Positions 15,789 to 18,932 of a DNA stretch of 64,000 nt are shown here, in pieces. The stretch covers positions 21,824,001 to 21,888,000 of the forward strand of contig OZ024758.1 of assembly GCA_964016885.1 (NCBI GenBank), given 5' to 3'. The notes beneath the pieces were generated by a model that was not told where the DNA came from, did not search any database, and worked only from the letters and a program-made list of their open reading frames with translations. Positions within the stretch are counted from its first letter, which is position 1. Each line of letters starts with the position of its first letter. The stretch is from Eledone cirrhosa. Its lineage: Eukaryota. The position numbers were made by a program, and so were the translations under genes.

Positions 15789-15827
<39 letters not shown>

Positions 15828-15973
15828 TTTTGAGTTTATGTTGGTTGTAAACCAACACCTCAGTATGCAGGCTGGAGCACTCGACGAAGTGCGCAGGTTG
15901 GTTTGGTTACTCCGGAGTAGTGTAAAATAAAGTTAAATAAAAGTCAAATGATTAAAATTTAGCTTCGTTTATT

Positions 15974-16028
15974 ACTGCTATATATATTTCAGTGACAGCC
16001 ATCTTTGGCTGTGACCTCTTCAGGCAGT
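15974..16028 (-). ncRNA. Minimal type I hammerhead ribozyme, minus-strand copy
   Basis: Exact reverse complement of 16263-16317. Confidence 0.85.
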
Positions 16029-16262
16029 TTGGATTAGTATGGTATAGACAAGTACATATGTTGTTTAGGTGTATGATATTGTCAATACTCTGATATGCCC
16101 AGTTCCTTGTTGGGTTGTTAATTCACTGACTCCAGTTGTTAATTCATATGACTCCAGTTCCCCAGTGAATTAACAACCCAACAAGGAACTGGGCATATCA
16201 GAGTATTGACAATATCATACACCTAAACAACATATGTACTTGTCTATACCATACTAATCCAA

Positions 16263-16317
16263 ACTGCCTGAAGAGGTCACAGCCAAAGATGGCTGTCACT
16301 GAAATATATATAGCAGT
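16263..16317 (+). ncRNA. Minimal type I hammerhead ribozyme; predicted cleavage after A16312
   Basis: actgc-CTGAAGA-ggtcacagcca(aaga)tggctgtcact-GAAA-tatata-TA-gcagt: complete core, 5-bp stem I, long stem II, palindromic stem III. Confidence 0.85.
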
Positions 16318-16361
16318 AATAAACGAAGCTAAATTTTAATCATTTGACTTTTATTTAACTT

Positions 16362-16389
<28 letters not shown>

Positions 16390-16392
<3 letters not shown>

Positions 16393-16455
16393 ACGAAGGG
16401 AGTAGCTGTCGAAACGGATTGAGCTCTGCCGTCGGGGTCCTGACTATTTTCCTAT
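16390..16455 (+). mobile_element. Short family H1 fragment in (TA)n with an inverted terminal piece (ataacgaagg)
   Basis: tagctgtcGAAAcggattgagctctgccGTCggggtcc. Confidence 0.65.
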
Positions 16456-16477
16456 ATATATACATATATATATATTA

Positions 16478-16598
16478 ATTGTTTCTACTTTTTGGCACAA
16501 GGCGACCAAATACCCAGTGCATTACTGGTACTTTATTACCAAAGGCGGTAACTCTATGCGTCAAAGCATGGCGTCCGACCCCTACCGATACTGCCAAT
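16478..16598 (-). mobile_element. Internally deleted family A SINE
   Basis: gcatggcgtccgacccctaccgatactgccaat head; tgtttctactttttggcacaagg tail. Confidence 0.75.
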
Positions 16599-17127
16599 AT
16601 ATATATTAATATATATTAATATTGTTATACTTGGGGAGGGTCATATTTGCGTAATATTGCCAGAATTAATAACAGAACACACTCACTGTTTGGTTGGATT
16701 TCGCTTCTCGCTGTCTTTTATATCTGCGATCTAACTTAATCGGTCCTCAATGTTGCCATTGACTGACCGACGGTCAAAAATAATACAGATACAATATAGA
16801 CACAAACACATATATATAGTTTACATAATTTACATAAATCTTTCGTTGCACATCTGCAACATCGTCAGTGGTGTTATATTTTTTCCTCCTGTTGTGTTGT
16901 ATGTCTACGCCATTTTTTATTCAGTCTGTCTATATATAAATATATATTAATATATAATTGAATATAAAAGAGAGATAAACACAGATATATACATATATGC
17001 GTTCAAATCGTAAGGGACCAGATTCGCTAGGATGAAAAAAATACTATGAACATTTTTTTTTCCTTGAGCTATTTCATTGTAAGAAACTATTTTGAGTTTC
17101 TAACTCAATATACACTTTTGATAAATA

Positions 17128-17643: not shown

Positions 17644-18061
17644 TTTGCAATTTTCAACAGTTGAAAATTGCAAACTTGATTGCGAAACCATGAAAGTACA
17701 TGTTCAATTAATATTTAACATTTAATATTCTACCATACTATTTCATTATAATATCATTATAATTTTAAAGGATTGTAAATAAAACGAGTAAATCAGACAA
17801 AGTTGGAATTCCTTTTATTAATATAATCTTCTATACACAATCATACACACCCGTGTATATTTATATATATATATATATTTATTAAAATAACAGATTAAAG
17901 TTTAAGCAAAGAATCACCTAAGGGTGAAAGCAGCGATTCTTTGCTTAAACTTTAATCTGTTATTTTAATAAATATTTGCTTTACGGTTCTTATATATTTG
18001 ATATATATTTATCCTTATCGAGCCCTCTTTGGATTTTAGTCTTCAAATTTATTATTATTAC

Positions 18062-18487: not shown

Positions 18488-18700
18488 TGATTTCTAGTAT
18501 AGGCACAAGGCCAGAAATTTTGGGGGACTGGAAAGGCGATTAAATCGACCCCAGTACGTTACTGGTACTTTATTTTATCGACTCCTTAAGAATGAAAGGC
18601 AAAGTTAACCTCGGCTGGATTTGAACTCGGAACATAAAGGGCCTTAACTCTATGCTGCAAAGCATGGCGTCCGACCCTCTACCGATACTGCCAATCCCCC
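18488..18700 (-). mobile_element. Family A SINE, full length
   Basis: Reverse-complement A/B boxes and conserved domain. Confidence 0.9.
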
Positions 18701-18747
18701 GTCCTTGTTAATTTATATATAATAAACATTATAATATATACTATGTG

Positions 18748-18932
18748 TGGTGGATTGGCAGTATCGGTAGAGGGTCGGACGCCATGCTTTCCAGCATAGT
18801 TAAGTCCCTTTACGATCTGAGTTCAAATCCCGCCGAGGTTGACTTTGCTTTTTCATCCTTACGGGGTCGATAAAATAAAGTACCAGTAATGCACTGGGTA
18901 ATTGCTGGCCTTGTGCCTAAAGTAGAAACAAT
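18748..18932 (+). mobile_element. Family A SINE, full length, head-to-head with the previous copy
   Basis: ggattggcagtatcggtagagggtcggacgcc...gagttcaaatcccgccgagg...agtagaaacaatt. Confidence 0.9.

Follow-up and report, generated by a model that had tools for sequence, protein, structure and literature searches.

Two head-to-head terminal-repeat pieces of a Hydra-type Penelope-like retrotransposon, each with a minimal hammerhead motif, in Eledone cirrhosa

A 542-nt insertion at 15827-16368 of the 64-kb stretch of Eledone cirrhosa DNA analysed here (the window) is almost certainly, at roughly 97% by our own estimate, one insertion in which two terminal-repeat pieces of a Penelope-like retrotransposon (PLE), young and of Hydra type, stand head-to-head. 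Comparison of loci places the whole insertion within a (TA)n run, the target, whose left side occupies 15790-15826 and right side 16368-16392; other copies also end at (TA)n. A minus-strand arm with a 96-nt tail lies head-to-head with a tail-less plus-strand arm. The tail (15827-15922, minus strand, about +57 to +152, where signed positions are counted from the ribozyme cut) is present on this arm only, and it is followed by a 5'-truncated terminal repeat (pLTR) running from -149 to +56 (15923-16128, minus strand). The tail-less arm (16146-16368, plus strand) is a pLTR extending to +56 from -166, the main 5' boundary of the family according to the boundary counts. The preliminary description had reported a perfect 206-bp inverted repeat with a 34-nt spacer, and in the window the arms at 15923-16128 and 16163-16368 are indeed each 206 nt and 100% complementary, with a 34-nt gap. 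Its limits of 15923 and 16368 hold for the arms and not for the left side of the element, which reaches 15827 through the tail, so that both ends adjoin (TA)n. A target-site duplication is not discernible, as (TA)n stands on both flanks of 15827-16368. The tailed arm differs from its nearest sampled relatives by 2 substitutions in 302 nt, which agrees with the earlier view of a very young insertion; that view overstated the case, since much of the family is equally young and the arms are identical in 10 of the 29 sampled pairs with enough overlap for comparison.

Each arm contains one type I hammerhead. A descriptor scan of the 64-kb window located CUGAAGA cores at 16268 on the plus strand and 16023 on the minus strand, within motifs spanning 16263-16317 and 15974-16028, respectively. 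The predicted cut falls after A16312 on the plus strand and at the mirror position, 15979, on the minus strand. The minimal type I core (CUGANGA, GAAA, and UH with helices I and II) is present, with a helix I of 5 bp and a helix II of 10 bp that includes one C-C mismatch and has a 4-nt loop. An 8-nt AU palindrome forms the helix III segment; it is computed to be unfavourable as a monomer (+4.7 to +5.8 kcal/mol) and favourable as a dimer (-3.2 kcal/mol). As a chance test, 300 composition-matched resampled windows were scanned; a strict match occurred in none of them and a loose match in 11, and the real window yielded exactly these two motifs. A complete minimal hammerhead of the dimer type in each arm had been described from the start, and both points are upheld by the scan and the computed energies. 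The label "canonical" was too strong, for the pair 10.1-11.1 is G.U instead of the conserved G-C and Rfam makes no hammerhead call: nothing reached the gathering threshold, and the 16 matches at E<=5, none of them to a hammerhead family, were discarded as hairpin look-alikes. Metazoan PLE minimal hammerheads, as described by Cervera and de la Pena (2014, PMC4209133), are similar in their full core, short helix I, long helix II, and dimer-suited palindromic helix III, and their G10.1-C11.1 pair is highly conserved. The young subfamily studied here differs in its G.U pair, found at this locus and in 148 of 204 aligned copies, the commonest form, and in a predicted fold that leaves no base unpaired between positions 9 and 10.1; several divergent copies have G-C. 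Position 11.1 corresponds to 16300 (plus strand) and 15991 (minus strand) of the window, with U in the young subfamily and C in divergent copies. Both alleles are seen in sequencing reads, and the more prolific form is the less canonical ribozyme. Further hammerhead families with different stems occur in the fetched loci, one with the same AU-palindrome helix III and two with an ACUAGU palindrome, and the combination of hammerhead core and palindrome thus recurs across unrelated families.

The hammerhead lies in the pLTR of a young PLE of about 4.1 kb that has an RT-endonuclease ORF, which substantiates the Penelope-like origin suggested earlier. One long copy (L019) contains, in a single unit, an inverted tail-less copy, a coding region for RT and GIY-YIG in which a stop codon and a frameshift break the reading frame, a 3' region, the hammerhead, and the tail. 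A 1-kb RT probe returned 2,505 candidates; 40 were scored, and all but the source copy were 97-98% identical. Among the 20 RT-bearing loci fetched, 19 reach the hammerhead-bearing 3' end. In tandem copies, the tail continues into the 5' region and ATG of the next unit, giving a unit of about 4.1 kb. Partial tandems forming pLTRs, an inverted 5'-truncated copy, and a tail at one end all fit the PLE build. A second locus (L038) has two long copies head-to-head (2879-5554 and 5605-7899), one with an unbroken 891-aa ORF that encodes RWK (at 37), DKT (at 120), YRDD, CxCx5C (751), YIG, CxxC..E (849), and CxH (877), with no GxKF/Y. Inspection of the alignment by eye found no cysteine pair within the GIY-YIG core, so no CCHH. 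Most of these motifs are kept in seven aligned homologues, and among 43 homologues of the protein one has PF00078 and two have octopod names. Pfam assigned no RT family to the 891-aa protein, and PDB returned no match; GIY-YIG fell just below its Pfam cut-off (21.6 versus 22.6 bits; E 2.8e-4). The RT identity of the protein is read from its motifs and homologues, and the Hydra-type assignment from its motifs and the published description of the clade, which is marked by RWK, DKT, a CxCx5C linker, CxxC and CxH around conserved E and N, and no GxKF/Y (Craig et al. 2021, PMC8557442). The element also has a hammerhead and a (TA)n target in common with the Hydra clade PLEs in that source. Those elements are, as a descriptive matter, generally shorter than 3 kb (PMC8557442), in contrast to the roughly 4.1-kb unit, 891-aa protein, and low-complexity inserts found here. 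The inserts in the L038 ORF are absent or shorter in the homologues and resemble inserts of rotifer Penelope ORFs. A literature search, with subscription papers largely outside its reach, found no paper on the hammerhead of this family; 336 recently active Penelope-like insertions have been described in Octopus vulgaris, in passages that mention neither hammerheads nor Hydra (PMC13282606).

The layout at this locus is common. The exact 55-nt hammerhead motif occurs in 3,638 genome copies (1,822 + 1,816), and control matches numbered 0. We compared 81 loci: the window itself and 80 taken from the first 100 entries in the list of hammerhead matches (contig C1; four duplicates dropped). This sample was picked by an exact hammerhead in one arm and covers the first 103 Mb of one contig, and it hides arms that start at the cut. 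Close head-to-head arms were found in 40 of the 81 loci, and 38 had no head-to-head terminal pair in the fetched span. Genome-wide, a spacer-free palindromic junction is present at 201 loci. The rarity implied by the preliminary description was therefore overstated; the layout is a routine insertion product of the family, and the locus itself is one among hundreds of similar stubs belonging to a known class. Published descriptions exist both of inverted pLTRs with a one-sided tail (PMC8557442, PMC3846280) and of dual minimal hammerheads on opposite strands 100-700 bp apart (PMC4209133). Adineta Pen2a (PMC3846280; legend to Fig. 2 of PMC8557442) has the same head-to-head pLTRs of about 200 bp, a junction palindrome, and a tail at one end. 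Unlike that element, the present insertion consists of end pieces only, with no ORF between them; its tail is about 96-100 nt rather than 30-40 nt, and a target-site duplication is unreadable because the target is (TA)n (PMC3846280).

A perfect inverted repeat could also be a product of assembly or of long-read fold-back. The 100% identity of the arms is what such an artefact would give, and no contig or read from four sequencing runs crosses 15827-16368; family sequence is plentiful in two of these runs, appears as 14 contigs in one, and is missing from one. We nevertheless hold an artefact to be extremely unlikely, as the outer flanks differ, the tail is one-sided, the filler is templated, and older loci with diverged arms are built alike.

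The junction between the arms (16127-16146) is made of two short re-copied pieces, which overlap through microhomologies of 2-4 nt. Positions 16127-16137 repeat 16149-16159, and 16135-16146 repeat 16114-16125. The tailed arm thus halts at -149 and is followed by 11 nt re-copied from the sense arm, then by 12 nt from the antisense arm, and then by the sense arm itself from about 16146. The re-copied pieces had been noticed earlier as a sign of template switching within the 34-nt spacer. The pieces are confirmed and the extent is not, for filler is confined to about 16129-16145 and 16146-16162 is native element sequence. The filler may come from RT jumps or from host end-joining. The sequence at 16127-16146 has a single match in the genome, and a palindromic master element was rejected on account of this unique junction. 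This result also bears on a self-propagating palindromic mini-element, MITE- or retrozyme-like and copied as a unit, for which the recurrence of one junction form at 201 loci would speak. That form follows from the fixed 5' boundary, junctions differ widely among loci, and there is no head-to-tail tandem array as in retrozymes, all of which makes such an element very unlikely. Non-LTR retrozymes resemble the insertion in being short, non-coding, and PLE-derived with a type I hammerhead, but they comprise at least two head-to-tail units, each with a hammerhead, in contrast to the head-to-head arrangement with one hammerhead per strand found here (bioRxiv 10.64898/2026.07.22.740005).

The 3' ends of copies provide the first indication of how such pairs may arise. 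Genome-wide, tail-less copies end at +56 (1,303 exact matches) and tailed copies run to about +156 (1,704). Among close pairs, 39 of 40 combine one tailed with one tail-less arm, where free choice predicts 49% (P ~2e-11). A partly overlapping list gave 35 of 37; of the two exceptions there, one proved to be a compound insertion whose outer ends are mixed, and the other is a real tailed-tailed pair (L151). Divergence between arms is 1.07% within loci and 2.92% between loci (0 of 10,000 permutations), and in pairs with no more than 2 differences the arms agree at variable sites in 9/10, 13/13, 17/17, and 19/19 pairs. The two arms of a locus therefore come from one source lineage. Inner ends are also related: away from the 5' hot spot, they lie within 15 nt of each other in 6 of 12 pairs, against 1.3 expected (4 of 20,000 permutations), as they would if both copies ran off one molecule or if one folded back. 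These observations weigh against a version in which a protein dimer holds two separate RNAs, each priming on its own side of the cut. In its favour, a dimeric state has been predicted for the anole PLE protein, which extends both strands (PMC11167929), and one young pair (L137) differs at one variable site, as two RNAs would allow. Arms nearly always agree where co-existing young copies differ, however, and the matched inner ends and the rule of one tailed and one tail-less arm would demand extra assumptions, so that we think the use of two RNAs improbable.

We favour a mechanism in which the two DNA ends left by an endonuclease cut each primed reverse transcription, both of them on the same uncleaved RNA but at different fixed positions, and consider it probable on the strength of the DNA statistics of the family and the analogy with in vitro work on an anole PLE. 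The element RNA would begin at -166. The RT-endonuclease would cut both strands of the (TA)n target, and each 3' end would prime, one at +156 and the other at +56. Each cDNA would then extend toward the 5' end of the RNA, with the +156 copy often stalling near or behind the second. The cDNA ends would finally be joined by microhomology, at this locus after two short template switches. Twin priming is familiar from LINE-1, where one RNA is primed from the two ends of the target and the resulting inversion is joined by microhomology. In LINE-1 the second priming site is variable and the arms barely overlap, whereas the present family has two fixed sites and its arms can duplicate as much as a whole pLTR; the element is not a LINE-1 member. 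PLE RTs are not known to have RNase H, and one RNA could then be copied twice. An experimental parallel is Poseidon_Ac from the green anole, for which both strands were cut and extended in vitro, two internal RT starts bound the tail, the target is AT-rich, and ribozyme cleavage was apparently dispensable (Frangieh et al. 2024, PMC11167929). Poseidon_Ac belongs to another clade, its ORF starts inside the hammerhead rather than about 200 nt past the cut as here, and two-armed products do not seem to have been traced in that work (PMC11167929).

The shared variants and matched inner ends are also compatible with fold-back copying or later gene conversion. In a fold-back or self-priming model, the copying of one strand reverses at a short palindrome or microhomology and returns over the same strand, and later tip deletions or repair produce uneven inner ends and filler. 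Templated filler at this junction would be compatible with cruciform repair. The 201 junctions join exactly at an 8-nt palindrome at the pLTR 5' boundary, as a turning strand would leave them, and self-priming on an antisense template has already been proposed (Arkhipova et al. 2013, PMC3846280). The lengths of the arms are more difficult to accommodate. In 21 of 39 pairs (window included) the tail-less arm extends at least 10 nt farther 5', with the reverse in 5 (P 0.0025). Simple fold-back fails in those 21 pairs, because the tail-less arm has sequence that is absent from the tailed arm and the tail is absent from the tail-less arm. Fold-back would need secondary deletions in all of them, with the tailed arm affected four times as frequently as the other. 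Short arms (under 140 nt) are mostly tailed, 10 against 2 tail-less (P 0.04). Ten tailed arms stop at +22 to +118, near the second start site, which is where twin priming would place their ends. The end of the return strand at +56, a position also common in solo copies, is unexplained by the fold-back model alone. Antisense self-priming survives if later deletions are allowed, and we regard it as a tentative and rather doubtful alternative to twin priming on one RNA.

The proposed start of the template comes from the 5' ends of copies. A hot spot at -175 to -155 accounts for the beginning of 50 of 129 sampled arms, and 136 solo copies adjoin (TA)n at the -166 boundary. A predicted hairpin has its 5' base here, and two CCAAT boxes, which we take to be promoter boxes, lie upstream; from the DNA ends alone we infer that the RNA starts at -166. 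None of the 20 RT-bearing loci has an upstream pLTR starting at -166, and 795 copies continue through the boundary, so other templates exist. What looked like a second 5' boundary at -228 proved to be due to an indel in the sequence that serves as the coordinate frame. Ribozyme cleavage was considered as the maker of the template 5' end and is a minor route at most. No arm of the 129 begins within 14 nt of the cut, in a sample biased against such arms, and (TA)n meets the cut in 39 genome matches; among 12 of these examined, 7 keep an upstream hammerhead with a longer helix III. The other 5, and one long copy (L037), truly begin at the cut. Across the family, cleaved RNA seems to serve as template only rarely. 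The upstream pLTR of L037 starts at the ribozyme cut, where it adjoins (TA)n. At L153:1123-1349, a head-to-head pair with one tailed and one tail-less arm is joined exactly in the helix III palindrome at the cut, and it is a candidate product of cleaved RNA.

Read-through transcription of the completed insertion would leave little room for ribozyme activity. The tails point outward, and thus the antisense arm would be made first from either flank, with a 206-bp duplex and a single sense hammerhead as the outcome. One sense hammerhead per transcript means that no dimer forms in cis, and no cleavage would be expected. The 542-nt RNA is predicted to fold at -391 or -384 kcal/mol, depending on direction, and the hammerhead helices, if forced, would cost 83 kcal/mol in both. 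The masking of the ribozyme by its own duplex, put forward in the preliminary description, is thus sustained at the level of prediction, and the hammerheads at this locus are predicted to be inactive passengers. That the copy has a function, whether as a transcribed dsRNA that is diced or undergoes ADAR editing or as a working ribozyme switch, seems unlikely to us. The predicted duplex of about -390 kcal/mol would suit such a role, and Penelope copies give small RNAs in a rotifer (PMC3846280). Hundreds of loci are equivalent, however, and nothing marks out this one; the sole sense hammerhead of each transcript would be buried in duplex, and in vitro minimal PLE hammerheads are inactive as monomers and weak as dimers (PMC4209133). 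No host gene was evident by eye among 127 long ORFs, a survey that short exons would escape.

Other repeats surround the insertion. Stubs of a second, unrelated family occur at 16393-16452, 10538-10585, 12648-12691, 13959-13997, and 55308-55418 and share the right-hand (TA)n run. They contain an apparent 3' hammerhead half only (GAAA, a palindromic-loop helix, and UC), often turning head-to-head there, and similar sequence is present in 18 of 129 fetched loci. A short perfect hairpin family with 41-nt arms and a 19-nt spacer adjoins (TA)n at 17875-17975 and 13494-13550 of the window and appears in 15 of the 129 fetched loci. Pieces of a very abundant short repeat, often inverted, lie at 16480-16600 and 18549-18930.

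PLEs are the retroelements closest to telomerase, and this family bears on how they insert. The origin of PLE inverted repeats and tails has been named as an open question (PMC8557442). One general answer, to which we would give even odds, is that PLEs insert by fixed-site twin priming: a single protein complex, working from the two ends of a double-strand cut, would prime one uncleaved RNA at two set positions and copy its leader twice, and the cDNAs would be joined via an AUAU that opens the RNA, is self-complementary, and matches (TA)n as well. If true, fixed-site twin priming would account at once for the inverted pLTR and for the one-sided tail, the antisense self-priming model would be replaced, and the hammerhead would stand outside the integration reaction. 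The family is young and has fixed ends, junctions that can be counted, and an intact ORF in at least one copy, which makes these predictions testable in vitro, and the thousands of near-identical stubs in the genome are a ready data set for fixed-site twin priming. For Eledone cirrhosa itself, the genome has hundreds of long near-perfect hairpins, which would be relevant if any fall in transcripts.
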